A stretch of DNA of 64,000 nucleotides from Alphaproteobacteria bacterium (GCA_965205265.1 CBDBGH010000003.1:3104001-3168000); one strand, 5' to 3'; positions 4,321-22,584 are shown, counted from the first letter of the stretch. The notes: a model not told the origin generated them from the sequence alone. Made by a program: numbers and translations.

Positions 4321-5748
4321 TCAGACCGAGAAGCCGCCGAGCTTGGTTTCCAGATATTCGGCGATGCCCTCATGGCCGCCCTCGCGGCCGAGGCCGCTTT
4401 CCTTGGAGCCGCCGAAGGGGGCGGCCGCGGCCGTCGGGTTGATGTCGTTGATGCCGACAATGCCGAATTTCAGGCCCTCGAACATGCGGAAGCCCTTGGC
4501 CATGTCGCGGGTATAGACATAGGAGGCGAGGCCGTAATGGGTGTCGTTGGCCATGGCGAGCGCCTCCTCCTCGTCCCGGAAGGCGATGATCGGCGCGACC
4601 GGCCCGAAGGTCTCCTCGCGGTAGATCTGCATGTCGGGCGCAACGCCGGAGAGCACAGTCGGCGCATAGAAGGTGCCCTTCGCGAGCGCACCGTCGGTCA
4701 TGCGGTGGCCGCCGCAGAGTACCTCCGCCCCGCGTCCGGCGGCGTCCGCAACCTGGCGCTCGACCTTCTCTATCGCCGCCTCATCGACCAGCGGGCCGAT
4801 CTGCACGCCGTCCTCCAGCCCGTTGCCGGCGCGCATGCGCCCGACGCGCGAGACGAACTCGTCCGTGAAGGCCTCGACCGCATTCTCATGCACGAAGATG
4901 CGGTTCGGGCAGATGCAGGCCTGGCCCGTATTCAGGAACTTGACCAGCGCAGCACCCTTGGCCGCGTGGACGGGGTCCGCATCCTCCAGCACCAGGAAAG
5001 GCGCATGGCCGCCGAGCTCCAGCGAAACGCGCTTCATGCTCGCAGCGGCGCGCGCGGCGATCGTCTTGCCGACCTCGGTCGAGCCGGTGAAGGTGATCTT
5101 GCGGACCCTCGGGTCGGTCAGGAACACGTCGCCGATGGGCGCGGGGTCCTCCGCCGTCACGAGATTGACGACGCCCGCCGGGACGCCCGCCGCCTCCAGG
5201 CACTCGAACACCTTGACCGCCGAGAGCGGCGTCGCCTCGGCGGGCTTCAGCACGATGGTGCAGCCGGCGGCGATGGCGGGCGCCACCTTCCGCGTCACCA
5301 TCGAAACCGGATAATTCCATGGCGTGACCGCAGCGACGACGCCCACCGGCTGGCGCAGCACCATGAAGCGCTGGTCGCCGCGCGGGGCCGGGATGGTCTC
5401 GCCATAGACGCGCTTCGCCTCCTCGGCATACCAGAGCAGGAAGTCCGCGCCGTAGCGCACCTCGTTGCGGGCCGCGCGCAGCGGCTTGCCCTGTTCGAGC
5501 GTCATGGTGCGGGCGAGATCCTCCGCCCGCTCGGTCATGATCTCCCAGGCGCGGTAGAGGATGCGCGAGCGCTCATAGGCCGTCCGGCCCGCCCAGCCGG
5601 GAAAGGCGCGCTCCGCCGCCTCGATGGCGCGTGCTGCATCCGCGCCGCCGCCGTCCGGCGCCTCGCCGATGACATCGCCGTTTGCCGGGTTCGTCACCCG
5701 GAAGCGCCCGCCGCCCGCCGCCTCGCACCACACGCCGTCGATGAACAT
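4321..5748 (-). CDS. gabD: NAD(P)-dependent succinate-semialdehyde dehydrogenase family aldehyde dehydrogenase
   Basis: TPWNYP, FTGSTEVGK, LELGGHAP, GQACIC, EETFGP, PFGGSKESGLGREG. Confidence 0.85.
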   Translation of the reverse strand: MFIDGVWCEAAGGGRFRVTNPANGDVIGEAPDGGGADAARAIEAAERAFPGWAGRTAYERSRILYRAWEIMTERAEDLARTMTLEQGKPLRAARNEVRYGADFLLWYAEEAKRVYGETIPAPRGDQRFMVLRQPVGVVAAVTPWNYPVSMVTRKVAPAIAAGCTIVLKPAEATPLSAVKVFECLEAAGVPAGVVNLVTAEDPAPIGDVFLTDPRVRKITFTGSTEVGKTIAARAAASMKRVSLELGGHAPFLVLEDADPVHAAKGAALVKFLNTGQACICPNRIFVHENAVEAFTDEFVSRVGRMRAGNGLEDGVQIGPLVDEAAIEKVERQVADAAGRGAEVLCGGHRMTDGALAKGTFYAPTVLSGVAPDMQIYREETFGPVAPIIAFRDEEEALAMANDTHYGLASYVYTRDMAKGFRMFEGLKFGIVGINDINPTAAAAPFGGSKESGLGREGGHEGIAEYLETKLGGFSV

Positions 5749-5889
5749 GGCCCCGTTCCCCTCCGCTTTCCGTCGGCAAAAGAGGCCCTTACCCCGCCAG
5801 CGCCGCAGGCTCAAGGTTTCCGCCGCCGCTTGCGCCGGGCCGTTTCCCGCAACACCATGGAGGAAGAGGACCGGAAAGGGGATGGACCG

Positions 5890-6759
5890 ATGAAATTCGC
5901 GCTGCGCTATTGCAACACCGGACGCTACACCGACCCGGCGGAGGCGGTGGCCCTGCTGCAGGCCGGCGAGGCGGCGGGGTTCGAATCCGCCTGGACCATC
6001 GAGCACACCGTGGTGCCGAAGGGATACCGGTCCTCCTACCCTTATGCGGCCGGCGGCAGGATGCCCGGCGACGAGGCGGAGTTCGTAATGCCGGACCCGC
6101 TGATCTGGATGTCCTGGGCGGCGGCGCATACGGAGCGCATCCGCCTCGGCACCGCCATCCTGATCCTGCCGCAGCACAATCCCGTCGTCACCGCCAAGCA
6201 GGTGGCCACGCTGGACGCCATGTCGGGCGGGCGGATCGAGCTCGGCATCGGCGTCGGCTGGCTGCGCGAAGAGTTCGATGCACTCGGCGTGCCCTTCGAG
6301 GACCGGGGCGCGCGCACGGACGACTATGTGCATGCCATGCGCGAGCTCTGGCGGTCTCCCGCGCCGACCTACAGGGGCCGCTTCGTCTCCTTCGAGAACG
6401 CCTTCATGCGCCCGAAACCGGCGAACGGCACGGTGCCGATCACGGTGGGCGGCCACTCGAAGGCCGCAGCCCGGCGGGCCGGGCGGCTCGGCGACGGCTT
6501 CTTCCCGGCGCGCGGCGCACCCGAGGAGCTGTTCGACCTCGTGCGCGCGACGGCGCGCGAGCATGGGCGCGACCCCGACTCGATCACGCTCACCTGCTCG
6601 ATCCCGGACGATCTGGACGAACTGCCGCGCCTGACCGCGATGGGCGTCGGGCGCGTCACCGTGCCGGTGACCGGGGTTGCGGGCCTCGCCATGCGGGTGG
6701 ACGGACCGGAAGACGTGATGGCGTGGAAGGAAACCATCGAGCGCTACGCCGACCTCTGA
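5890..6759 (+). CDS. LLM class (luciferase-like, putatively F420-dependent) oxidoreductase
   Basis: GFESAWTIEHTVVP, DPLIWMSWAAAHTERIRLGT, LDAMSGGR, GWLREEF. Confidence 0.88.
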   Translation: MKFALRYCNTGRYTDPAEAVALLQAGEAAGFESAWTIEHTVVPKGYRSSYPYAAGGRMPGDEAEFVMPDPLIWMSWAAAHTERIRLGTAILILPQHNPVVTAKQVATLDAMSGGRIELGIGVGWLREEFDALGVPFEDRGARTDDYVHAMRELWRSPAPTYRGRFVSFENAFMRPKPANGTVPITVGGHSKAAARRAGRLGDGFFPARGAPEELFDLVRATAREHGRDPDSITLTCSIPDDLDELPRLTAMGVGRVTVPVTGVAGLAMRVDGPEDVMAWKETIERYADL

Positions 6760-6776
6760 GCAGGCGCGGGCCCGGG

Positions 6777-7511
6777 TCACGCCCGGACGGCGGCGATCAG
6801 GTATTCGACATTGCCTTCCGGGCCGCGCACCGGGCTTTCCTCCAGACCGAGCACGGACCAGCCGTCCAGGCCGTCGAGCCAGGCGCGGACGGCCTCGCAG
6901 ACCTCCCGGCGCACCTCCGGGTCGCGCACGACGCCGCCCTTGCCGACGCGCGCCCGCCCGGCTTCGAATTGCGGCTTGACGAGCGCCACCAGATGCGCGC
7001 CGGGGCGGGTGAGCGCGAGCGGCGCGGGCAGCACCGTCCCGAGCGGGATGAAGGAGGCGTCGCAGACGACCAGATCGATGAGGTCCGGGACTTCGGCCGC
7101 CGTCAGGTAGCGGGCATTGGTGCGCTCCAGCACGCGCACGCGGGCATCGTTGCGCAGCTTCCAGGCGAGCTGCCCGCGCCCGACATCGACGGCCCACACG
7201 CAGGCCGCGCCGTTGGCCAGCAGAACATCCGTGAAGCCGCCCGTGGAAGCCCCGACATCCAGGCATATCCGTTCCCGGACGGGAATCGCGAAGGCGTCGA
7301 GGCCGTGCGCCAGCTTCAGCCCGCCGCGCGAGACCCAGGGATGCGCCCGCCCGCGCACCTCCAGCGGCGTGTCCGGGCCGATGGCATGGCCCGCCTTGTC
7401 GAGCCTTCGCGCGCCGGAATAGACCTTGCCCCCGAGGACAAGCGCCTGCGCCTGCGTCCGGTTTTCCGCGAGGCCGCGCGCGACCAGAATCCGGTCGAGG
7501 CGGTCCTTCAC
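6777..7511 (-). CDS. tlyA: TlyA family rRNA 2'-O-methyltransferase
   Basis: S4 domain [37 protein letters not shown]. Confidence 0.95.
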
Positions 7512-9427
7512 CCCACTGCCGCGACCGGCGCAGGGCCGAAGGCGGCGAACACCGTCCGGAAAATGGCGTCCGTGTCCAGCCCCGCCTGGGCCACCTGCGC
7601 TTCCGGCTTGTCATGGTCGATGAAGACATCCGGCATGACCAGCGAGCGGACCTTCAGGCTGCCGTCCAGAAGGCCGCGGCCGGCCAGGAACTGGAGCACG
7701 AAGGCCCCGAAACCGCCGACCGAGCCCTCCTCGACCGTGACCAGCAGTTCGTGGTTCTCCGCCAGCCGGCGCACAAGGTCCTCGTCGAGCGGCTTGGCGA
7801 AACGCGCATCGGCGACCGTGGTCGAAATTCCCTCGGTCTCCAGCCGTTCCGCCGCCGCCAGCGCATCGTGGAGCCGCGCACCGTAGGAGAGGATGGCCGC
7901 CTTCGAGCCTTCGCGCATAATCCGGCCCCTGCCGATTTCCAGCGCCTCGCCGCGTTCCGGCAGGGGCACCCCGACGCCCTCGCCGCGCGCATAGCGCAGC
8001 GCCGAGGGTCCCTCGTCGATGCCCACGGCCGTTGCGACCATATGCACGAGGTCTGCTTCATCGGCGGCCGCCATCAGCACGAAATTCGGCAGGCAGCCGA
8101 GATAGGCGATATCGAAGGCGCCGCAATGGGTCGCGCCGTCGGCGCCGACATAGCCCGCCCGGTCGATGGCGAAACGCACCGGCAGCGACTGGATCGCGAC
8201 ATCGTGGACGACCTGGTCGTAGCCGCGCTGCAGGAAGGTCGAATAGATCGCCGCAAAGGGCTTCATGCCCTCGCAGGCGAGCCCCGCAGCGAAGGTCACC
8301 GCATGCTGCTCGGCGATGCCGACATCGAAAGCGCGGTCCGGGAAGCGCGCGCCGAACGCGTCCACGCCCGTGCCGGACGGCATGGCCGCGGTAATGGCGC
8401 AGACCGCCGGGTCGCGCTCCGCTTCGGCGATCAGGCTCTTCGCGAAAACCGAGGTGTAGGACGGCGCGGCGGGCTTCGACTTGGCCTGCACACCGGTGTC
8501 GAGGTCGAACTTGGAAACGCCGTGATACTTGTCGCCGGAGGTTTCCGCCGGCTCGTAGCCCTTGCCCTTCTGCGTGACCGCATGGATCAGCACCGGCCCG
8601 CGCCCGTCCGTGTCGCGGACATTGCGCAGGATGGGCAGCAGATGGTCGAGATTGTGGCCGTCGATCGGGCCCACATAGTAGAAGCCCATCTCCTCGAACA
8701 GCGTGCCCCCGGTGACGAGGCCGCGCGCATATTCCTCCGCTCTCAGCGCCGCGGTCTCGAACGGCTTCGGGAAGCGCCGCGCCACTTCCTTGGCAACCTG
8801 CCTGAGCGAGCGGTAGGAACGCGACGAAATCAGCCGCGCGAGATAGTTGCTCATCGCCCCGACATTGGGCGCGATCGACATGTCGTTGTCGTTCAGCACC
8901 ACGACAAGCGGCAGTTCCATCGCGCCGGCATTGTTCATCGCCTCATAAGCCATGCCGGCCGTCATGGCGCCGTCGCCGATCACGGCGATGCACCGCCTGC
9001 TCTCGCCGCGAAGCTGGGCCCCCGCCGCCATGCCGAGCGCCGCCGAGATCGAGGTCGAGCTGTGCGCGGCGCCGAAGGGGTCGTAGGGGCTCTCCACGCG
9101 GCGGGTGAAGCCGGACAGGCCGCCGCCCTGGCGCAAGGTGCGCATCCCGGACCGCCGCCCGGTCAGGATCTTGTGCGGATAGGCCTGATGGCTCACATCC
9201 CAGATCAGCCGGTCATGCGGGGTTTCGAACACCGCATGCAGCGCCACGGTCAGTTCGATCACGCCGAGGCTGGCGCCCAGATGGCCGCCCGTCTGGGAAA
9301 CCGTGTCCACGGTCTCGAAACGCAGTTCGGCTGCCAGCTGCTTCAACTCGTTGTCGGAGAGTTCCCGGAGGTCCGCGGGAGAGTCGATGCGGTCCAGCAA
9401 CGGGGTCGTTCGGTTGGACAGGTACAT
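7508..9427 (-). CDS. dxs: 1-deoxy-D-xylulose-5-phosphate synthase
   Basis: [42 protein letters not shown]. Confidence 0.97.
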
Positions 9428-12557: not shown

Positions 12558-13391
12558 ATGGCCGAGCTCGAAGGGAAGACCGCCGTCATCACGGGGGGTG
12601 CCAGCGGGATCGGCGAGGCGACGGCGCGGCTGTTCACCGCCGAGGGCGCGCGGGTCGTGATCGCCGACATGCAGCGCGAGCGGGGCGAGGCGCTGGCGGA
12701 AGAGCTCGGCGAGGCGGCGCTGTTCGCACCCTGCGAGGTCCGCGACGAGGCGGAGGTGAAGGCGGCCGTCGATCTGGCGCTCGACCGCTGGGGGCGGCTC
12801 GACTGCATGTTCAACAATGCCGGCTTCGGCGGCGCCCTCGGGCCGCTGGAGGCGATTCCGGCGGAGGAGTTCGACCTGTCCTTCGATGTGCTGGTGCGCG
12901 GCGTCTTCCTCGGCATGAAGCACGCCATCCCGGCGATGAAGGCGCAGGGCTCGGGCAGCATCGTCAACACGGGCAGCATCGCCGGCATCACGGCCGGGCG
13001 GGGCCCGCAGGTCTATTCGGCCGCCAAGGCGGCCGTGGTGCATCTTTCCAGGGTCTCCGCGATGGAACTCGGCGAGCACTCGGTCCGGGTGAATTGCGTC
13101 TGCCCCGGCTATATCGCGACACCGCTTTCGGCCAACACGGTCGGCAGGCCGGACAGCCTGATCGAGGAGCGGCTCGACGACTACGCCCTGCAGCAGCCGA
13201 TCCCGCGCGTCGGCCGGCCGCGCGACATTGCCGAAACCGTGCTGTTCCTGGCGAGCGACCGGTCGAGCTTCGTCACCGGCCAGGCGATCACCGTGGATGG
13301 TGGCGCGGCCACAGGCGTGCTCTGGCGCGACCAGAAACCCTTCTACAAGCAATACCGCCCCATCCGCGTCTATCATCCCGACCGCCGCTAG
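12558..13391 (+). CDS. Short-chain dehydrogenase/reductase
   Basis: TGGASGIG, NNAG, YSAAK. Confidence 0.93.
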   Translation: MAELEGKTAVITGGASGIGEATARLFTAEGARVVIADMQRERGEALAEELGEAALFAPCEVRDEAEVKAAVDLALDRWGRLDCMFNNAGFGGALGPLEAIPAEEFDLSFDVLVRGVFLGMKHAIPAMKAQGSGSIVNTGSIAGITAGRGPQVYSAAKAAVVHLSRVSAMELGEHSVRVNCVCPGYIATPLSANTVGRPDSLIEERLDDYALQQPIPRVGRPRDIAETVLFLASDRSSFVTGQAITVDGGAATGVLWRDQKPFYKQYRPIRVYHPDRR

Positions 13392-13396
13392 GGCCG

Positions 13397-14344
13397 GTGC
13401 CGCTCTTCGACACTCACATCGTCGTGGACTGGTCGGCGCGCTCGAAGCCGAGTCCGGCCCGGCCGAGCCGCGACTCGATCTGGTGGGCCGCAGTACGAGA
13501 CGGGCGGGCGCTCAAGCCCGAATATATGCGCACGCGCCACGATGCCGTCGAACGCCTTGCCGTCTTCGTCGCCGGGGAACTGGATGCCGGGCGCCGCGTT
13601 CTGGCCGGCTTCGATTTCCCGTTCGGCTATCCGGCGGGCGTTGCCGAACGCCTGACGGGCCGGGCCTCTGCCTGTGCGCTTTGGGACTGGCTTGCGGAGC
13701 GGGTGGAGGACAAGCCGGACAATGGTAACAACCGCTTTGCCGTAGCCGAGGAGATGAACCGATGCTGGCCGGGCGTCGGGCCGTTCTGGGGCCGCCCGCC
13801 GGCATGGCGTTACCCGCAAATCCCGGTCCGGGCGCGCGACCGCACCTGCCGGGAAGGGCGCCCGGCGGAGCGCCGTATCGCCGACAGGCGGGCAAAGGAG
13901 GCCAAAACCGTCTGGCAATTGGCCTATTCCGGCTCCGTCGGCTCGCAGGTGCTTGTGGGCCTGCCGGCCTTGAAACGGCTGCTGGCGGACCCGCGCATCG
14001 GCGGGCGCGGCGGGGTCTGGCCCTTCGATACCGGGCTGAGGCCGCCGGATACCTGCAAAGCGCCGCTCGTGCTCGCGGAAATCTACCCCTCGCTTCTCCG
14101 GAAAGAGGTTGCCGAACGCCGGGGCGACGGCGAAATCCTCGACTGCGCCCAGGTCCGCGTCAACGCAGCGGCATTTGCGCGGCTGGACAGGCGGGGCGGC
14201 CTTGCGCCACTGTTCGGGGGCGCGCCCGATCTTGGGCCGAATGAACGCCGCCTGATCGAACGAGAAGAGGCATGGATACTCGGCCTCGGCCATGAGGACG
14301 GGATTCGCGACGCTGCGAGAACGGATTGCCATGAACAGGGATAA
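13397..14344 (+). CDS. Conserved hypothetical protein, DUF429-like (predicted RNase H fold)
   Basis: VVDWSA, GFDFPFGYP, GSVGSQ, EIYPS, LDCAQV, EEAWILG; GTG start inferred. Confidence 0.7.
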   Translation: MPLFDTHIVVDWSARSKPSPARPSRDSIWWAAVRDGRALKPEYMRTRHDAVERLAVFVAGELDAGRRVLAGFDFPFGYPAGVAERLTGRASACALWDWLAERVEDKPDNGNNRFAVAEEMNRCWPGVGPFWGRPPAWRYPQIPVRARDRTCREGRPAERRIADRRAKEAKTVWQLAYSGSVGSQVLVGLPALKRLLADPRIGGRGGVWPFDTGLRPPDTCKAPLVLAEIYPSLLRKEVAERRGDGEILDCAQVRVNAAAFARLDRRGGLAPLFGGAPDLGPNERRLIEREEAWILGLGHEDGIRDAARTDCHEQG

Positions 14345-16409
14345 CCCCGCCTGCCGCATCGGCGTCGATGTCGGCGGGACCTTTACCGATGTCGTCATCG
14401 ACCATGCCGGCGCGCGCACCTCCGCCAAGGTGCCGACGACGGCCGATGCACCCGAAACCGGGGTGATCGAGGGCATCGGCGCAGCGCTCGAACGCGCCGG
14501 CATTGCGCCGGAAGCGGTCGATCTCGTCATCCACGGCACGACGCTCGCCACCAATGCGCTGATCGAGCGCAAGGGGGCGAGGACCGCGCTGCTGACCACC
14601 GAGGGGTTCCGCGACTCCATCGAGATGGCCTATGAGCACCGGTTCGAGCAATACGACCTCTATATGGAGCGCCCGGAGCCGCTGGTGCCGCGCGAACTCC
14701 GTCTCGGCGTGCCGGAGCGGCTGGCGGCCGACGGCGCCCTGCTCATGGCGCTCGACGAGGCGGCGGTCGCCGCCCATGCCGCGTTTTTCCGCGAGGAGGG
14801 CGTCGAGGCGGTCGCCGTCGGCTTCCTGCATTCCTATGTGGACGATTCCCACGAGCGCCGCGCGGCCGCCATCCTGAGCCGGGAACTGCCGGGGGCGACG
14901 ATCTGCCTGTCGTCAGAAGTGTCGCCGGAGATCCGCGAATACGACCGCCTTTCGACCACGGTCGCCAATGCCTATGTCCGCCCGCTGATCGCGGGCTATG
15001 TCGGCCGGCTGGAAGCCGCGCTGCGGGAACGCGGGCTCGCCTGCCCGCTGCTGCTCACCATGTCGAGCGGCGCGGTGACGACGGTGGAGACGGCGCAGCG
15101 CTTCCCGATCCGGCTGGTGGAGTCCGGCCCGGCCGGCGGCGCCGTGCTCGCCCGCAATGTCGCCGCCGAGCACGGCCTCGACAAGGCGCTCTCCTTCGAC
15201 ATGGGCGGCACCACGGCGAAAATCTGCCTGATCGACGACTACCGCCCGCAACTGTCGCGCAATTTCGAGGTGGCGCGGCAATACCGGTTCCTGAAGGGCA
15301 GCGGACTGCCGCTGCGCATCCCGGCCATCGAGATGGTCGAGATCGGCGCGGGCGGCGGCTCCATCGCGCGCACCGATGCGCTCCGGCGGATCGTCGTCGG
15401 CCCCGACAGCGCGGGCGCCGCCCCGGGCCCGGCCTGCTACGGGCGCGGCGGCGAGGCGCCGACCGTGACCGACGCGGACCTGATGCTGGGGCGCATCGAC
15501 CCGGCCCGGTTCGCCGGCGGGACCATGGCGCTGGACAGGGATGCCGCCCTCCATGCCGTCCGGCGCGATGTGGGCGGCCCGCTGGGCATGACGGACGAGG
15601 TGGCCGCAGCCGGCGTCAGTGAGATCGTGGACGAGGCCATGGCCAATGCCGCCCGCGTCCACGCGATCGAGAGCGGCAAGCCGCTGGGCGGGCGGGCGCT
15701 CATCGCATTCGGCGGCGCCGCCCCGCTCCACGCCGCGCGCCTCGCCGTCAAGCTCGGGATCGGCACGGTGGTCGTGCCGCCGGGGGCGGGTGTGGGCTCG
15801 GCCATCGGCTTCCTGTCCGCGCCCATCGCCTATGAGGTCGTGCGCTCGCGCTTCATGGCGCTCGACAATTTCGCGCCGGCGGTCGTGGATGCGCTGTTCG
15901 ACGAGATGCGCGTGGAAGCGGAAGCCGTGGTGCGGCTCGGCGCGCCCGACGCCGAACTGGAGGAGGTGCGGACCGGCTACATGCGCTATCGCGGCCAGGG
16001 CCATGAGATTGCGGTCGAGCTGCCGGAACGCGCCGACGCGGAAGAATACCGCCGCCGCTTCGACGACGCCTATCGCCGTCTCTACGGCCGCACCATCCCG
16101 GCGCTGGAGGTGGAGGCGATGTCCTGGAGCCTGGCGCTCGGGGCTGCGGACCGGTTGCCGGCCCGCCTGCCTGCGGCGGCTCCTACGGACGCCGGCCCGC
16201 CTTCCGGCCGGCGGATGCTTTACAACACGGAGTCGGGCGGGCCGGTAAAGGCGGTCGTCCACGCGCGCGCCGACCTCGCGCCCGGCGTCCGGCTTGCCGG
16301 CCCGGCGGTCGTGGTAGAGGATGAAACCGCCACCGTCGCGCCGGAAGGCTTCGACCTCACGGTCGCCGCTTCCGGCGCCCTGGTGCTGACGCGGAGGACG
16401 CCTGCGTGA
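14331..16409 (+). CDS. Hydantoinase/oxoprolinase subunit A
   Basis: IGVDVGGTFTD, HGTTLATNALIER, ESGPAGG, DMGGTT, IGAGGGSI. Confidence 0.95.
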   Translation: MNRDNPACRIGVDVGGTFTDVVIDHAGARTSAKVPTTADAPETGVIEGIGAALERAGIAPEAVDLVIHGTTLATNALIERKGARTALLTTEGFRDSIEMAYEHRFEQYDLYMERPEPLVPRELRLGVPERLAADGALLMALDEAAVAAHAAFFREEGVEAVAVGFLHSYVDDSHERRAAAILSRELPGATICLSSEVSPEIREYDRLSTTVANAYVRPLIAGYVGRLEAALRERGLACPLLLTMSSGAVTTVETAQRFPIRLVESGPAGGAVLARNVAAEHGLDKALSFDMGGTTAKICLIDDYRPQLSRNFEVARQYRFLKGSGLPLRIPAIEMVEIGAGGGSIARTDALRRIVVGPDSAGAAPGPACYGRGGEAPTVTDADLMLGRIDPARFAGGTMALDRDAALHAVRRDVGGPLGMTDEVAAAGVSEIVDEAMANAARVHAIESGKPLGGRALIAFGGAAPLHAARLAVKLGIGTVVVPPGAGVGSAIGFLSAPIAYEVVRSRFMALDNFAPAVVDALFDEMRVEAEAVVRLGAPDAELEEVRTGYMRYRGQGHEIAVELPERADAEEYRRRFDDAYRRLYGRTIPALEVEAMSWSLALGAADRLPARLPAAAPTDAGPPSGRRMLYNTESGGPVKAVVHARADLAPGVRLAGPAVVVEDETATVAPEGFDLTVAASGALVLTRRTPA

Positions 16410-17648
16410 ACCCGGATTCCCTGAGGCTCGACGATGCCGAACTCGCCCGCCTCGCGGCTGGCGGGGAGAGCGCGCGGGTCGAGTTCAAGGAACGGCTTTC
16501 AGGCAGCGCAACCAGGCAGATCGAAGAGGCGATCTGCGCTTTCGCAAATGATTTAGGAGGTAGCGGCAAGCCCGGCATTGTAATAGTCGGCCTTCGGGAC
16601 GATGGTACGCCGGCCCATACCGCAATTACGGACGAACTGCTTCTTACGCTTACGAATATTCGTAGCAACGGCGATGTATTGCCGCCGCCGATGCTGCTAG
16701 TGGAGAGACGCCACATGATTGGTGTCGAGGTCGCAGTCGTAGCTGTCGCGCCCTCCAGACTCTCCTCCCGTGCGCTGCCGTGGCCGCATCCATGTCCGCA
16801 GCGGCCCGAGACGCGGCATCGCCACGGCACAGGAAGAGCGTGTGCTGAATGAGCGTCGGCGTTTCGCAGACCGGCCGTTCGATCTTCGACCGATTGCGAG
16901 TGCCGATCTCTCTGATTTGAACCGGCGACAATTCGAAGACGAATATTTGCCCGCCGCTGTTGCCCCTGACGTGCTTGAGATGAATGACCGCAGTTACCAG
17001 CAACAGCTTGAGGCCACGAAGATGGTCACAGTAATTGAAGACCCACAGCCAACGCTGGTCGGTCTTCTTGTATTAGGGATCAGTCCGCGTGATTTTATAG
17101 ATGGCGCTCGAGTTCAATTTCTTCGCATAGATGGCAAAGAATTCGGTGACGAAATTATCGACACCATGACGATAGATGGCACCGTTTTGGATATGGTGAG
17201 GCAGCTTGAGGACAAGCTGCGTTCTCACAACTACCATAGTGTAGATTTCATGGGTGCCGATCGTGAACATCGTCAGGAATTTTACCCACTCCCTGCATTA
17301 CAACAATTATTCCGAAACGCCTTGATACACCGTAGCTACGAAGGCACCAAAGCGCCGGTCCAAGTAACCTGGTTCAATGACCGAATTGAGATTCAGAGTC
17401 CTGGCGGCCCATATGGTCAAGTCACTATAGACAATTTTGGTGATCCTGGTAAGGTCGATTACAGGAACCCGAATCTTGCGGAGGCTATGCGAAATCTTGG
17501 ATATGTTCAGCGGTTCGGTGCTGGAATTGGCACGGCTCAACGTCTCCTGCGCCAATCAGGTCACATGGAGGCGCAATTCGATGTCAATCAAACACATGTT
17601 CTTGTTACGGTAATGTCAGCCACCAGCACGACGGGAGAAGAGAAATGA
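16406..17648 (+). pseudogene. Schlafen/AlbA_2 domain plus HATPase_c_4 (RecG C-terminal-like) protein, split by a +1 frameshift near 16757
   Basis: ORF 16406..16852 has GESARVEFKE...ICAFAND...VGLRDDG; ORF 16770..17648 has RNALIHRSY, DRIEIQSPGG, YRNPNLA, VQRFGAGI; removing one base gives continuous VAPSDSPPVRCRGRIHVR (about 413 aa). Confidence 0.8.
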
Positions 17649-18676
17649 GCGTGCCCGTCCTTACCTTTTTCAACAACAAGGGAGGTGTGGGAAAGACCTC
17701 GTTGGTCTATCACCTTGCATGGATGCTTTCTGAGCAAGCAAAGCGAATTCTGGCTGGCGATTTGGACCCGCAGGCGAATCTCACGGCGTCCTTTGTGGAT
17801 GATGAGTCTCTAGAGCCTCTGTGGATCGGTAGTTCCGACGACTCGAACGCCACAATTTATCAATGCGTACAGCCGTTGGCGGCGGTTGGCGATCTGAAAC
17901 GGCCTGCAATCCATATGATTTCAAACGCGCTTGGCGTCATCCCCGGGGATTTGGCGCTGTCCAGCTTCGAGGAACGGCTGTCTGTAGAATGGCCTAACGC
18001 GCTCGGTTCAAGCAGCTTGTTTCGACCGTTCAGGGTGCTGACCGCGTTTTGGCAGGTGATGCAGATGGGCGCGGAGCAGATGCAGGCCGACATGATCCTG
18101 GTGGATGTCGGGCCCAATCTCGGCGCCATCAACCGCTCGGCATTGATTGCGACGGACTATGTTGTCGTGCCTGTCGCTGCCGACATGTTTTCCCTTCAGG
18201 GGTTGCGCAATCTTGTGCCGACCCTGAGAGGATGGCGGGAAGAATGGCGCCGGCGTAAGGAAAATTGGCCGTCCCCCGACTTTCCCTTGCCGAGTGGCGG
18301 GATGCGGCCGATTGGGTATGTGGTGCAGCAGCATGGCGAACGCCAGGGCAGGCCCGTGAAGGCATATGGAAAATGGGTCGAGAGAATCCCCAGGGAATAC
18401 GCCCGTATCGTGGACGGCGAAGAAGGCCGGAGCATAGCCGACCTGCCGGAGGGCGACGCCAATTGTCTGGCGACAGTCCGACACTACCGCAGCCTGGTGC
18501 CTATGGCCCAAGAGGCGCGAAAGCCGATCTTTGCGTTGAAACCTGCCGATGGCGCCATTGGTAGCCATGCTGCTGCGACCATCAAGGCTTACGGTGACTT
18601 TCGTGACCTGGCCGGACGCATCGCGGATCAGGTGGAACGGATGGAACTGGAACAGAGGGAAAGGGCAGACGGATGA
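17645..18676 (+). CDS. Orphan ParA/MinD-family ATPase (AAA_31)
   Basis: Deviant Walker A FNNKGGVGKT, DLDPQANLT, DVGPNLG; no parB nearby. Confidence 0.9.
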   Translation: MSVPVLTFFNNKGGVGKTSLVYHLAWMLSEQAKRILAGDLDPQANLTASFVDDESLEPLWIGSSDDSNATIYQCVQPLAAVGDLKRPAIHMISNALGVIPGDLALSSFEERLSVEWPNALGSSSLFRPFRVLTAFWQVMQMGAEQMQADMILVDVGPNLGAINRSALIATDYVVVPVAADMFSLQGLRNLVPTLRGWREEWRRRKENWPSPDFPLPSGGMRPIGYVVQQHGERQGRPVKAYGKWVERIPREYARIVDGEEGRSIADLPEGDANCLATVRHYRSLVPMAQEARKPIFALKPADGAIGSHAAATIKAYGDFRDLAGRIADQVERMELEQRERADG

Positions 18677-20361
18677 CCGCGACATTCGATGACGTGCGCC
18701 ATCAGGTGATGTGGAACCGGCTGCTTTCGGTGGTCGAGGAGCAGGCGCAGACGCTCGTGCGCACGGCGTTTTCCACGTCCGCGCGGGAGGCCGGCGACAT
18801 TTCCGCGGGCGTCTTCGACCTTACAGGGCGGATGCTGGCCCAGGCGGTCACCGGCACGCCCGGCCATGTGAACTCCATGGCGCTCTCGGTGGAGCATTTC
18901 GTTGCGAAATTCCCGCCGGAGACCATGCGCGAGGGCGATGTCTTCATCACCAACGACCCGTGGAAGGGCACCGGCCACCTGAACGACTTCACCGTCGTGT
19001 CGCCGACCTTCCGCGACGGGCGGATCGTGGCGCTGTTCGCGTCCACCAGCCATGTCGTCGACGTCGGCGGCCTCGGACAAGGCCCCGACGCCCGCCAGGT
19101 CTATCAGGAGGGCCTGTTCGTGCCCCTCATGCCGTTCGCCGAAGCCGGGCGGGTGAACGAGTGGTTCCTCGAGATGGTGCGCGCCAATGTGCGCGAGCCG
19201 CGCATGGTGATCGGCGACCTCTACGCGCTTGCCGCCTGCAACGACACGGGCAGCGAGCGGCTGCTGGCGATGATGGACGAATACGGCCTCGAGGACCTTT
19301 CCGCGCTGGCGGACTTCATCGTGGACAGCAGCCGGCAGGCGATGGCCGATGCGATAGGCGCCCTGCCGCAGGGAAGCTGGAGCCACTCGATGACAATCGA
19401 CGGCTTCGACCGCGAGGTCGAACTGGTCGCGCGGCTGACGGTCGGCAACGGCGTCATCGACGTCGATTTCGACGGAACCTCCGGGCTCTCCGACTTCGGC
19501 ATCAACTGCCCGCTCTGCTACACCATCGCCTATACGAGCTTCGGCGTGAAATGCATCGTGGCGCCGGAGCTTCCCAACAATGCGGGCGCGCTCGACGCCA
19601 TCCGCGTGACGGCGCCCGAGAACTGCATCCTCAACCCGCCGCATCCCTGCGCCGTCTATGCGCGCTCCAATATCGGCCACATGCTGCCGGACGTGGTGTT
19701 CGGCTGCCTGCACCAGTCGATTCCGGACCGGGTGCCGGCGGAGGGCTGCTCGGCGCTCTGGACGCTCAGGCTCGGCGCCGGCCAGGGGATTACGGCGCGC
19801 GCCGGCTCGCAGTCCACGCCGTTCCAGATCATGAGCTTCCATTCCGGCGGCGCGGGCGCGCGGCCGGGGCTGGACGGCCTCTCGGCGACGCCCTTCCCCT
19901 CCGGCGTGCGCAACGTGCCCGTCGAGGCGACCGAGGCGATCACGCCGCTGGTGTTCTGGAAGAAGGAGCTGCGCCCCGACAGCGGCGGCGCGGGCCGGAC
20001 GCGCGGCGGCCTCGGCCAGACCATCGAGGTGGAGAACCGGGAAGGCGCGCCCTTCGGCATCTACGCCACCTTCGAGCGCACCGTGCATGCCGCGCGGGGG
20101 CGGGGCGGCGGGGGGCCCGGCGCGCTCGGGCGCCTCAGCCTCGCCTCGGGCCGGAAGCTGCGCAACAAGGGCTTCCAGGTCATCCCCGAAGGGGAGCGGC
20201 TGGTCGTCGAGATGCCGGGCGGCGGCGGGCTCGGGGACGCCGGCTCGCGGGACCCGGCGGCGGTGGAACGGGACGTGCGGCGCGGCCTGGTCAGCCCCGA
20301 AGCGGCCCGGCGGGACTACGGGTTCGATCCAGGCTCCAGCCGGACTTCGCCCAGCCGCTGA
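18673..20361 (+). CDS. Hydantoinase B/oxoprolinase subunit B
   Basis: RTAFSTSAREAGD, TNDPWKGTGHLND, HVVDVGG, DSGGAG..RGGLG, PGGGG. Confidence 0.95.
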   Translation: MTATFDDVRHQVMWNRLLSVVEEQAQTLVRTAFSTSAREAGDISAGVFDLTGRMLAQAVTGTPGHVNSMALSVEHFVAKFPPETMREGDVFITNDPWKGTGHLNDFTVVSPTFRDGRIVALFASTSHVVDVGGLGQGPDARQVYQEGLFVPLMPFAEAGRVNEWFLEMVRANVREPRMVIGDLYALAACNDTGSERLLAMMDEYGLEDLSALADFIVDSSRQAMADAIGALPQGSWSHSMTIDGFDREVELVARLTVGNGVIDVDFDGTSGLSDFGINCPLCYTIAYTSFGVKCIVAPELPNNAGALDAIRVTAPENCILNPPHPCAVYARSNIGHMLPDVVFGCLHQSIPDRVPAEGCSALWTLRLGAGQGITARAGSQSTPFQIMSFHSGGAGARPGLDGLSATPFPSGVRNVPVEATEAITPLVFWKKELRPDSGGAGRTRGGLGQTIEVENREGAPFGIYATFERTVHAARGRGGGGPGALGRLSLASGRKLRNKGFQVIPEGERLVVEMPGGGGLGDAGSRDPAAVERDVRRGLVSPEAARRDYGFDPGSSRTSPSR

Positions 20362-20597
20362 CCGGAGCGCCGGTCGAAGGTCCAGAACAGCACCGCGCCG
20401 CCCTGCTCCAGCCGGATGACCAGCTCGTCGCCGGCCACGCGCCAGTCCGTGACCTCGGCATCCTGCGGCAATTGCCAGCGGACCTCGCCGACGCCGGCAG
20501 GGGGTGCCAGGGACCGGTTGACGATCGTGACCAGGACGACCGCAACGCCGGCGACGATCGCCACGCCCATGCCTATGACCAGGGCCTTCAGACCCAT
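20316..20597 (-). CDS. Small single-TM protein typical of the position next to rluD in alphaproteobacteria (DUF6476-like)
   Basis: MGLKALVIGMGVAIVAGVAVVLVTIVNR hydrophobic N-terminus. Confidence 0.75.
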   Translation of the reverse strand: MGLKALVIGMGVAIVAGVAVVLVTIVNRSLAPPAGVGEVRWQLPQDAEVTDWRVAGDELVIRLEQGGAVLFWTFDRRSGQRLGEVRLEPGSNP

Positions 20598-20675
20598 GAA
20601 TTGCTCTCCGCCGCTCGTCCCGGCCGCGGATTTGCCATAGTTGTGCGCACAAGTCATCGCCATGGAGCGGGTTCT

Positions 20676-21602
20676 GTGACAACGGGCGAGGAAAGCACCG
20701 TCTTCGAGGCCGTCGCGCCGCCGGAGGCCGACGGCGAGCGGCTGGACCGCATGCTGGCCCGCGCGATCCCCGAGCTCTCGCGTTCGCGCATCCAGGCGCT
20801 GATGGCGGAGGGGCGGGTGACGCCCGCGGCCCGCAAGGCGGTCGCGGGGCAGCGCTACCGGGTGAGCGTTCCGCCGGCCCGGCCCGCCGAGCCCGCGGCC
20901 GAAGCGATTCCGCTGGCGGTGGTCCATGAGGACGCGCATCTGGTCGTCGTGGACAAGCCGGCGGGCATGGTGGTGCATCCCGGCCCCGGCCATGACGGCG
21001 GCACGCTCGTGAACGCGCTCCTGGACCGTTGCGGCCCGGAGCTGACGGGCGTGGGAGGCGTTGCCCGGCCGGGCATCGTCCACCGGCTGGACAAGGACAC
21101 CTCCGGCCTCATCGTGGCCGCCAAGACCGAAGCGGCCCATGCGGGACTCCGCCGGCTGTTCGAGACGCATAACATCGACCGGGGCTATCTCGCGCTGGCG
21201 CAGGGCCTGCCTTCCCCCGTTGCAGGGAGGATCGAGGCGCCCATCGGCCGCGACCCGCGCCATCGCAAGCGCATGGCGGTGGTCGAGCGGGGGCGCGCAG
21301 CCGTCACCCGCTACCGGGTCGAGCAGGCGTACGGCACGCGGGCCTCGCTGGTCGCCTGCCGGCTGGAGACCGGCCGCACCCACCAGGTGCGGGTCCATAT
21401 GGCCCATATCGGCCATGCGCTCATCGGGGACCCGCTCTATGGCGGGCGGCGGCGCGGCATGCCGGCCTTTCCCCGCCAGGCGCTGCATGCCGCGCGGCTC
21501 GGCTTCCGCCATCCGGCGACCGGGGAAGAGATGCTGTTCGAAAGTCGGCCTCCGGCGGACTTTCATGAACTCGCGGTAATGTTGGAAGACTTGAATTTAT
21601 AG
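20676..21602 (+). CDS. rluD: RluA/RluD family pseudouridine synthase
   Basis: RLDRML, DKPAGMVVHPG, GIVHRLDKDTSG, TGRTHQVRVH, RQALHA; start codon approximate. Confidence 0.92.
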   Translation: MTTGEESTVFEAVAPPEADGERLDRMLARAIPELSRSRIQALMAEGRVTPAARKAVAGQRYRVSVPPARPAEPAAEAIPLAVVHEDAHLVVVDKPAGMVVHPGPGHDGGTLVNALLDRCGPELTGVGGVARPGIVHRLDKDTSGLIVAAKTEAAHAGLRRLFETHNIDRGYLALAQGLPSPVAGRIEAPIGRDPRHRKRMAVVERGRAAVTRYRVEQAYGTRASLVACRLETGRTHQVRVHMAHIGHALIGDPLYGGRRRGMPAFPRQALHAARLGFRHPATGEEMLFESRPPADFHELAVMLEDLNL

Positions 21603-21618
21603 GCTGTTCTTCCTATAT
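21590..21618 (+). promoter_or_regulatory. RpoH-type promoter upstream of rpoH
   Basis: CTTGAA-N16-CCTATAT matches the alphaproteobacterial sigma32 consensus. Confidence 0.65.
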
Positions 21619-21645
21619 TCAGGGCGTGTCGAGAGGGTTCGGACC

Positions 21646-22584
21646 ATGGCCGAAAACATCGCAGCCAGCCGCAATATCCCCGCGCTCAACGGCGAGAGCA
21701 ATCTCTCCCGCTACCTGCATGAAATCCGCCAGTTCCCGATGCTGGAGCAGGAAGAGGAATACATGCTGGCGAAGCGCTGGGTCGAGCATCAGGACGTGGA
21801 TGCGGCGCACCAGCTGGTGACCAGCCATCTGCGGCTGGTCGCGCGTATCGCCATGGGCTATCGCGGCTACGGGCTTCCGGTGAGCGAACTGATCTCCGAA
21901 GGCAATGTGGGCATGATGCAGGCGGTCAAGCGCTTCGACCCGGAAAGGGGTTTCCGCCTCGCGACTTATGCCATGTGGTGGATCAGGGCCTCGATCCAGG
22001 AATATATCCTGCACTCCTGGTCGCTAGTGAAGATGGGCACGACCGCAGCCCAGAAGAAGCTGTTCTTCAACCTGCGCCGGATGAAGCAAAGGATCCAGGC
22101 CATCGAGGATGGCGACCTGTCGCCCGAGCATGTCACGAAGATCGCCGACGAGCTCAGGGTATCCGAGGACGAGGTCGTGCAGATGAACCGCCGCCTCGCC
22201 GCGCCGGACCGCTCGCTGAACGCGCCGATGCGCATCGAGGGCGAGGGCGAGTGGCAGGACTGGCTGGCCGACGAAAGCGAGAGCCAGGAGGTGCTTTACG
22301 GCGAACGCGAGGAGCTTGAGCGCCGCCGGCGGATGCTCGCCGGCGCGATGGAGGCGCTGAACGAGCGCGAGCGGCGCATCCTGCAGGAACGCCGCCTGCG
22401 CGAGGACCCGGCGACGCTTGAGGACCTCAGCGGCGAATTCGGCGTGAGCCGCGAGCGCATCCGCCAGATCGAGGTGCGCGCCTTCGAGAAGCTCCAGCGC
22501 GCCGTCCGCGATGCGGTCGTGCAGGACCGGTTGCACGCCGAGCGGGCGATAGACGCAGGCGTGGGCGCCGCTACAGGGGCGTAA
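21646..22584 (+). CDS. rpoH: RNA polymerase sigma factor RpoH (sigma32)
   Basis: RpoH box QKKLFFNLR, GFRLATYAMWWIRA, VSRERIRQIE. Confidence 0.97.
   Translation: MAENIAASRNIPALNGESNLSRYLHEIRQFPMLEQEEEYMLAKRWVEHQDVDAAHQLVTSHLRLVARIAMGYRGYGLPVSELISEGNVGMMQAVKRFDPERGFRLATYAMWWIRASIQEYILHSWSLVKMGTTAAQKKLFFNLRRMKQRIQAIEDGDLSPEHVTKIADELRVSEDEVVQMNRRLAAPDRSLNAPMRIEGEGEWQDWLADESESQEVLYGEREELERRRRMLAGAMEALNERERRILQERRLREDPATLEDLSGEFGVSRERIRQIEVRAFEKLQRAVRDAVVQDRLHAERAIDAGVGAATGA

Follow-up and report, generated by a model that had tools for sequence, protein, structure and literature searches.

A frameshifted Schlafen-ATPase gene and its ParA-like partner at a hyuA/hyuB junction: a candidate remnant of a horizontally acquired defence module

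Why do two genes of low guanine-plus-cytosine (GC) content separate a hyuA-type gene from a hyuB-type gene, and what might the pair do? The question is posed by a stretch of 64,000 nucleotides from an Alphaproteobacteria bacterium (GCA_965205265.1 CBDBGH010000003.1:3104001-3168000, one strand; 'the window' below means this whole stretch), in which the two genes form a cassette at 16406-18676. Gene 1 joins a Schlafen/AlbA_2 nuclease domain to a GHKL-type ATPase domain, a combination that a recent preprint discussed below calls 'Schlatpase', and gene 2 encodes a ParA-like ATPase. A first description made from the sequence (the original prediction) saw in them a nuclease effector with an ATPase regulator, and its placement of the cassette between the two hyu-type genes was confirmed. 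Our preferred answer, to which we assign a probability of roughly 0.6, is that the cassette is a horizontally acquired two-gene defence module of Schlatpase and ParA, lodged in the hyuA/hyuB junction, in which ParA gates a ribonuclease (RNase) effector and of which the local copy has been inactivated.

Open reading frame (ORF) calling places five reading frames between 14292 and 20361, all in the same direction. The features of this segment are as follows:

14292..16409, + strand: hyuA-type gene (hydantoinase/oxoprolinase A subunit family; Pfam Hydant_A_N, Hydantoinase_A and Hydant_A_C)
16406..16756, + strand: gene 1, first frame, with the Schlafen/AlbA_2 nuclease domain (PF04326)
16406-16852, + strand: gene 1, unshifted first frame (ORF) up to the stop at 16850-16852
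16757, + strand: approximate site of a surplus base (TCC-A-GAC); homologues in the fetched loci are single-frame across the joint
16758..17648 (ORF 16770-17648), + strand: gene 1, second frame, with a linker/middle region and the GHKL-type HATPase_c_4 domain (PF13749)
17645..18676, + strand: gene 2, an intact ParA-like (SIMIBI) ATPase of 343 amino acids (Pfam AAA_31 and CbiA)
18673..20361, + strand: hyuB-type gene (hydantoinase B/oxoprolinase family; Pfam Hydantoinase_B, 477.9 bits)

The hyuA/gene 1, gene 1/ParA and ParA/hyuB junctions read GTGA, ATGA and ATGA, each a start/stop overlap of 4 base pairs (bp), and Shine-Dalgarno-like purine-rich stretches can be read in the sequence ahead of all three starts (gene 1, ParA and hyuB). 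Against the NCBIfam caprolactamase alpha model the hyuA-type gene scores 473 bits, under the 1000-bit cut-off.

The domain content originally proposed for gene 1 agrees with the Pfam search. The first frame matches SLFN_AlbA_2 (PF04326) at 38.3 bits (cut-off 25.3) over residues 21-116 and contains GESARVEFKE, in which E21, E26 and K28 form an Ex4ExK motif at 16466-16489; Ex4(E/D)xK is the Schlafen catalytic motif as defined in the portion of Perez Taboada et al. available to us (Nat Microbiol 2026, PMC13056530). The 296-residue second frame matches HATPase_c_4 (PF13749) at 66.5 bits (cut-off 26) over residues 199-284 (~17352-17609). Because only 12 residues follow this domain before the gene ends, gene 1 has no C-terminal helix-turn-helix (HTH), again as first described. 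In a set of 52 homologues hardly any variation is seen at the Schlafen motif positions, E16, E21 and K23 there being the equivalents of E21, E26 and K28 in the window, and the GHKL positions N299, H303, G328, G329, G366 and G368 (numbered as in the intact homologue at locus L001) are likewise nearly invariant among homologues; the two domains are contiguous in 69 homologues, Schlafen first and GHKL second. An AlphaFold2 model of the L001 protein, which is 61% identical to both window pieces, has a mean predicted local distance difference test (pLDDT) score of 92.3. Searched against the PDB with Foldseek, this model matched C. diphtheriae DIP2311 (3LMM) first, with a template-modelling (TM) score of 0.65, and then the nuclease domains of SLFN11/12/14, the transfer RNA (tRNA)-cleaving tRNase domain of SAMD9 and the CA (catalytic) domains of histidine kinases. 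PADLOC matched gene 1 to pAgo and pAgo-associated models only, in their Schlafen-GHKL parts. Its sequence predicts an RNase effector of the Schlafen type.

Gene 2 is the ParA-like ATPase, overlapping gene 1 by the 4 bp of the ATGA junction, that it was first taken to be. It matches AAA_31 at 98.6 bits, and also CbiA; its Walker A sequence KGGVGKT lies at 17678-17698 and its DLDPQ at residues 39-43. The Walker A motif is of the deviant kind, with both lysines, and across 26 sequences FNNKGGVGKT and DLDPQ vary little or not at all; mean column identity in the ParA alignment is 70%. With the ParA/Soj proteins of ParABS partition systems the protein shares its fold, a deviant Walker A that includes the signature lysine, and a DxD sensor motif. 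A model of the window protein (AlphaFold2, pLDDT 81.1) matches C. diphtheriae DIP2308 (3PG5) first (TM 0.64) and then Soj/ParA structures, and 3PG5 is also the best PDB match by sequence (E = 7.7e-30). The protein carries an extra conserved C-terminal region of ~140 residues. In PADLOC its only match was PDC-M28B, confined to 39 residues in the Walker A region, and the ParA proteins of L001 and L036 matched nothing. The best solved-structure relatives of both cassette proteins are therefore structural-genomics entries from C. diphtheriae, of unknown function and 17-28% identical; DIP2311 has 583 residues with extra C-terminal sequence, and the two locus tags are three apart, so that these genes are not adjacent, unlike the window pair.

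Does the pair exist as a unit elsewhere? Loci were taken as the best 80 of at least 522 confirmed ParA relatives, with one genome per species among 185,579 species genomes. In 78 of the 80 the gene immediately before ParA is a gene-1 homologue, and the hosts span several Pseudomonadota classes as well as Nitrospirota, Acidobacteriota, Verrucomicrobiota, Gemmatimonadota, Cyanobacteriota, Actinomycetota, Chloroflexota, Desulfobacterota, Campylobacterota, Elusimicrobiota, Poribacteria and others. The two genes thus form a tightly conserved module that recurs across phyla, and in these ParA-seeded loci their pairing is obligate rather than a chance neighbourhood. All-versus-all clustering of the 744 ORFs at the loci found ParA in 77 loci and gene 1 in 71, followed by a generic two-component family in 9, and hence no third conserved gene across the 80. 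The ATGA overlap is retained in 48 of 63 intact pairs. The ParA family itself is large and well conserved, the best 120 of at least 8000 scored candidates being 63-96% identical, and by our tally about 24 of the 119 best gene-1 matches lie on contigs equal in size to contigs of the best 120 ParA matches. Pairwise identity across phyla has a median of 54-56%. The pairwise-identity matrices of gene 1 and ParA correlate (r = 0.73, a value reached in 0 of 2000 label shuffles), which fits inheritance or transfer as one unit; shared ancestry alone also gives such a correlation.

Gene 1 is intact in 69 of the 80 loci, broken or truncated in eight (L007, L015, L025, L028, L035, L053, L057 and L068), cut by a contig edge in one (L011) and absent from two (L052 and L070). 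ParA is full length in 79, including seven of the eight loci with a broken gene 1. Together with the window, these seven loci suggest that the effector decays first and ParA is kept, a pattern that is no more than suggestive since seeding the sample on ParA biases it towards an excess of broken gene 1 over broken ParA. At the two solitary ParA loci the upstream sequences are a HicA-like gene and a TPR protein rather than a different effector. Three further loci hold a second copy of one partner: at L035 (1-1039, minus strand) and L038 (1-1417, minus strand) a second gene-1-like ORF, assigned by ORF-cluster membership only, lies a few kilobases (kb) upstream on the opposite strand, and at L048 a second short ParA/CbiA-type gene of 217 amino acids (7167-7820, minus strand) lies just downstream of the pair, also on the opposite strand.

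In the window, gene 1 is split between two frames. When its halves are compared with related loci the matches abut in a single frame at the joint (for example, L001 4771-5109 and then 5110-5976), which places one surplus base at ~16757 and bears out the original prediction's mention of a 'frame-repaired' pair. Because everything downstream of that base is intact, GHKL motif positions included, the defect is single and probably recent, or else an assembly error. The window's own fragments appear in the protein collection as a singleton of 148 amino acids and as a 268-amino-acid protein (P0121, the second frame) in a cluster of two. Most likely, the local effector gene was broken by one extra base with ParA left whole, and the local module is a recently inactivated remnant; since its effector gene is frameshifted, this copy is probably not a working system.

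It is unlikely that gene 1 is not truly broken and that the system works, whether through an assembly error or through a +1 ribosomal shift at a very rare codon. Such a reading would account for a gene with one defect only and with its catalytic and ATP-binding motifs intact; moreover, the 0-frame codon at the insertion is AGA, which has 0 uses in 2,202 codons of five host genes, and the 5.46-megabase contig may be of long-read origin. Against an error stands the site itself, TCC-A-GAC, which lies outside any homopolymer run, and decay of gene 1 is also seen in about one in ten loci elsewhere. A +1 translational shift is made unlikely by the P-site UCC, which cannot re-pair one base downstream, and by the single-frame state of 69 of the 80 homologues, by which a shift is no trait of the family.

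How did the pair come to lie here? The cassette is compositionally foreign: the flanks have a GC of 0.70-0.78, which falls to 0.475 at 17000-17399, and GC at third codon positions (GC3) is 0.50-0.67 in the cassette versus 0.83-0.92 in five host genes, so that the cassette genes are of lower GC by both measures, as the original prediction had noticed. The nearest hyuAB operon found, on a Shinella plasmid (megablast against plasmids), has hyuA and hyuB 2 bp apart and no cassette. The window's hyuA aligns to residue 702 of 705 of its Shinella homologue, within three residues of the end, and hyuB aligns from residue 5, within four residues of the end; the cassette therefore fills the intergenic junction and removed nothing. 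The flanking genes of the window have their best matches on Rhizobiaceae and Paracoccus plasmids. The window copy is 65% identical to a Pseudomonadales copy and 64% identical to a Nitrospira copy, a similarity that does not follow taxonomy. Between genomes, copies resemble each other in DNA from the first codon of gene 1 to the last of ParA and no further, with an added leader of 31-149 bp (promoter-like and Shine-Dalgarno-like) and up to ~37 bp after the stop in some lineages.

Within the cassette, GC3 is 0.42-0.57 over most of the second frame of gene 1 (0.70 in its first 40 codons) versus 0.60-0.82 in ParA. ParA has relatives at 96% identity (P0001 and P0002), and the best relative of the gene-1 second frame, besides its own fragment, is 79% identical (P0122). 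These inequalities in relatedness and GC3 may reflect a mosaic cassette, or a gene 1 that is missing or broken in the closest relatives.

Direct and inverted repeats at the ends of the cassette amount to short imperfect, chance-like matches, and no att-like site was seen when the flanks of cassette copies were compared. An integron cassette was considered and dropped, since array, attC-like repeat and integrase are all lacking. No parB, integrase or transposase model was matched among 22 ORF translations from 9.3-26 kb (18 scanned against Pfam and 5 against NCBIfam, one of them in both; seven matched no family), in line with what the original prediction said of the vicinity. Terminator-like sites in the cassette are at shuffle level, without excess; no Rfam family matches within 13000-22000, and no tRNA gene occurs in the whole window.

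The idea that the cassette borrows the expression of its host operon held in part. No sigma-70-like promoter was found by a promoter scan of the plus strand within the cassette, in keeping with the idea; as a trait of the family it does not stand, given the promoter-like leaders of some copies and a co-directionality close to background. By crude ORF starts, 45 of 62 loci have an upstream neighbour that runs in the same direction as the pair, and 30 of 58 have such a neighbour downstream, about what is expected for any bacterial gene; in 8 of 57 loci only do the neighbours on the two sides share this direction and lie no more than 75 bp away. Sitting between two genes of one operon thus recurs elsewhere and is not general.

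A defence setting is clearest where the neighbours belong to an Hma-like cluster. In six of the 80 loci (L036, L042, L058, L061, L074 and L075), from hosts of several phyla, the pair (at ~4800-7000 in each locus) is enclosed by an Hma-like cluster comprising a large SNF2/NOV_C helicase, a DUF1156 methylase and a DUF499-type ATPase, the last in five of the six. PADLOC identified HmaA (2e-157) and HmaB (9e-119) at L036 and HmaC at L042 (8e-107) and L074 (5e-237); the remaining Hma loci were assigned through cluster membership only. The hmaA-like helicase and hmaB-like methylase genes directly flank the pair in L036, L042, L074 and L061, much as hyuA and hyuB do in the window, and in L058 and L075 other genes (a Ser/Thr kinase and an AAA_21 ATPase) share the gap. 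Downstream overlaps of -4 to -22 bp occur in four of the six. Hma genes are lacking in the window, and in the other 74 loci the pair is no component of Hma. It is quite unlikely, in our estimate, that these cases betray a plug-in cassette: two bare ORFs that cross phyla and settle precisely in operon gene junctions, with start/stop overlaps on both sides, as at hyuA/hyuB and at the four loci just named. Were this so, the cassette would either have a dedicated insertion route or be an addiction-type RNase/ParA pair that survives by riding on host transcription.

No member of the family turned up in the plasmid and phage collections: the closest match among 72,556 plasmids has 33.7% identity, and that among 50,697 phage records has 25.1%. 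The plasmid match (L082; Vibrio campbellii plasmid NZ_OX411214.1, 3989-4996) is a solitary ParA relative with no Schlafen gene beside it, and its neighbours are a small recombinase gene, 'mobile mystery protein A/B' genes and a type I restriction R subunit. The phage match (L083; Salmonella phage ST160, NC_014900.1, 2509-4062) is a ParA-like gene 25% identical to that of the window; in the P22-like phages ST160 and SE1 such a gene and an adjoining DUF3024 gene lie between the c2 repressor and gene 24.

A recent preprint anticipates the gene combination. Li, Burroughs and Aravind (bioRxiv 10.64898/2026.10.19.760177, 22 Oct 2026), in the part of the text available to us, list "ParA + Histidine-kinase-Schlafen" among predicted ParA-effector immune systems and propose that ParA intercepts invader DNA, with the effector released on failure. 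These systems place a PriB1/ConB1-type ParA in an operon with a Schlafen RNase-histidine-kinase-type ATPase, as in the window pair, and are described from many lineages, including filamentous ones; the window family is likewise widespread. The window ParA shows the marks by which Li et al. characterise the PriB1/ConB1 branches, namely an Asn ahead of the Walker A lysine motif, a Val inside that motif and DxD-x-Q. From that description and these Walker A and sensor-1 markers, we infer that the window family is their Histidine-kinase-Schlafen variant. A refuting condition that the original prediction set for itself therefore applies: catalogued there as a prediction, the pair is not an unrecognised system. 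The window differs in that its effector is frameshifted. A further difference concerns ParA: the available text of the model gives it rapidly evolving C-terminal extensions, and the C-terminal part of the window family is well conserved.

The effector, too, has published relatives, described here from the accessible portions of two sources. A preprint on SLFN-pAgo proteins (10.64898/2026.05.29.728809, May 2026) gives the name 'Schlatpase' to the combination of SLFN with the PF13749 GHKL domain and reports that, in RzAgo, ATP binding leads to tetramerisation and tRNA cleavage. The RzAgo Schlatpase has SLFN_AlbA_2 followed by the PF13749 GHKL ATPase, the same order as gene 1. RzAgo is fused to an Argonaute sensor, whereas gene 1 stands alone and its presumed sensor or switch is the separate ParA. 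According to the same preprint most Schlatpase proteins are small, stand-alone or HTH-tailed, and stand-alone Schlafen-GHKL proteins make up 58.6% of 103,533. Perez Taboada et al. (PMC13056530) report that bacterial Schlafen fusions defend against phage through tRNA cleavage and that, among Schlafen architectures, fusions of the HisKinase type are the most frequent (34.0% of 5,930 proteins). Their pSlfn5 and pSlfn7 are single-gene systems that share with gene 1 the Schlafen nuclease with Ex4(E/D)xK. The text accessible to us mentions no ParA partner, and 'ParA' as a protein name is absent from it. A literature search for AlbA_2 and HATPase_c_4 together found only an unrelated Photorhabdus paper.

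Put together, these relatives suggest how an intact pair might act. Gene 1 would be the effector: by analogy with RzAgo, its GHKL ATPase would bind ATP and oligomerise to form an active, tRNA-cleaving nuclease. The co-translated ParA-like ATPase would be the switch or sensor that holds the RNase silent; as gene coupling and the biology of ParA proteins suggest, foreign DNA or a phage factor could disturb its ATP/DNA cycle and so permit assembly of the RNase. Cleavage of tRNA would then arrest translation and amount to abortive infection. Domain identities, conserved catalytic and nucleotide-binding motifs, obligate pairing, foreign composition and a patchy spread over many phyla are what was observed directly here; that the two proteins bind each other, what the trigger and the RNA target are, and that phage is kept out are proposals built on that footing. 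Two predictions of a complex between the gene 1 and ParA proteins of L001, made with an alignment for each protein, both scored 0.00 and speak neither for nor against binding.

Several observations weigh against a defence role or against an inactivated local copy. The immediate neighbours (140 scanned against Pfam) are mostly housekeeping genes, such as ffh and infA (L006), mutS (L008), CTP synthase (L005), purA (L019), lgt (L030), aconitase and tyrS (L033), thrS (L044), uvrA (L059), pyruvate kinase (L064), ribonucleotide reductase (L065), ftsK (L066) and kdpA (L079). About 19 of 77 loci have an immediate neighbour that, judged by Pfam names, is defence-, mobile- or toxin-antitoxin-like (N6_N4 DNA methylases, DUF1016, DUF4365, WYL, Fic, PIN, AAA_21, a PLD-SNF2 protein and an integrase), so that a defence-island context applies to a minority. 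Both proteins are evenly and strongly conserved, ParA varying only at residues 61-75 and 256-270 and at its extreme C-terminus, which is unlike a fast-evolving sensor or the 'rapidly evolving C-terminal extensions' of the preprint. In the accessible part of PMC13056530, the protective proteins carry DUF262 or Ig-like sensors, and no HisKinase-type protein protected in the panel. PADLOC-DB v2.0.0 holds no system model that matches both proteins, and a full-text literature search found no experiment on a Schlatpase-ParA pair. Finally, the frameshift could be an assembly error, and the 148-amino-acid fragment, as a singleton, provides no confirmation by a second assembly. The proposal of a nuclease-effector and ATPase module, anti-phage or toxin-antitoxin-like, nonetheless gains from the conserved pairing, the near-invariant motifs, the absence of ParB and the same proposal by Li et al.; for the local copy it is undercut by the frameshift.

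A toxin-antitoxin-like reading is also kept alive by how evenly the two proteins are conserved and by the housekeeping genes around them. It is that of an addiction or selfish module in which ParA would constantly neutralise the RNase, loss of the cassette or of its expression would kill, and the two ORFs would persist anywhere. The tight, coupled overlap of the two genes agrees with this, as do the lack of a hypervariable sensor region, the end of similarity between copies at the two ORFs without recombinase or repeats, and the decay of the effector beside a full-length ParA. The last of these is, as noted, biased by ParA-seeded sampling, and the family is missing from the plasmid collection, the very replicons on which addiction modules thrive. 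The six Hma loci place the pair inside defence clusters, and a ParA of 343 amino acids is oversize, typical antitoxins being far smaller. On balance we regard an addiction module as an unlikely account.

A housekeeping or regulatory role without any link to conflict, such as RNA turnover or the positioning of complexes, is improbable. Database names for these proteins ('transcriptional regulator', 'ATP-dependent DNA helicase RecG') point that way, as do the high identity between phyla, the housekeeping neighbours and the absence from phage and plasmid collections. It would leave unexplained a patchy distribution of at least 522 confirmed relatives among 185,579 species genomes, the foreign composition of the cassette, a nearest hyuAB operon that lacks the pair, the frequent decay of gene 1 and the lack of a DNA-binding HTH in it; nor does similarity follow taxonomy, running as it does to Pseudomonadales and Nitrospira copies when the flanks best match Rhizobiaceae and Paracoccus plasmids. 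DNA partition, with gene 1 as a ParB substitute or adaptor for ParA, is very improbable. It draws on the classical ParA fold and motifs and on weak matches to the NCBIfam partition models (RepA, ParA_partition and SopA), all of which lie far below their cut-offs (RepA 64.9 versus 348 bits). Unlike ParABS, the pair has no ParB, gene 1 having neither an HTH nor a ParB domain, no carriage on plasmids and a ParA with the C-terminal region of ~140 residues; its chromosomal sites, moreover, are scattered.

Beyond the cassette, the surroundings from 9 to 26 kb are those of ordinary metabolism: a farnesyl diphosphate synthase, a zinc-dependent alcohol dehydrogenase, a hydrolase and a short-chain dehydrogenase/reductase, a MobB-fusion-like domain, an RluD-type pseudouridine synthase, a sigma-70 family factor and a carbonic anhydrase. 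The ORF just upstream of hyuA (13406-14341, plus strand) has no Pfam match and matches only the uncharacterised C-terminal part of NF011066, the 'MobB/unknown domain fusion protein' model, at E = 2e-72 and below the cut-off. A second, milder dip in GC (0.61-0.62) spans 21400-22200, at the start of the sigma-70 family gene (21646-22584). High GC also produces long spurious ORFs over real genes, for example a frame of 963 amino acids (18711-21602, plus strand) that runs through hyuB into the pseudouridine synthase gene (~20601-21599).

What, then, does this locus tell us? The window pair is an ordinary, decayed member of a newly described, computationally predicted kind of system, and our interpretation is essentially the same as a prediction published weeks earlier. 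The window itself adds little past one more broken example. New here are the frameshifted local effector, the mostly housekeeping flanks, the slot within Hma clusters in six of 80 loci and the absence from plasmid and phage collections. The neighbourhoods in turn offer leads in the obligate pairing, the Hma slot, the missing plasmid and phage members and a possible effector-first decay. In the clade coupled to ParA, the question of how an RNase could be gated by a ParA-type ATPase can be put to a clean system of two proteins.

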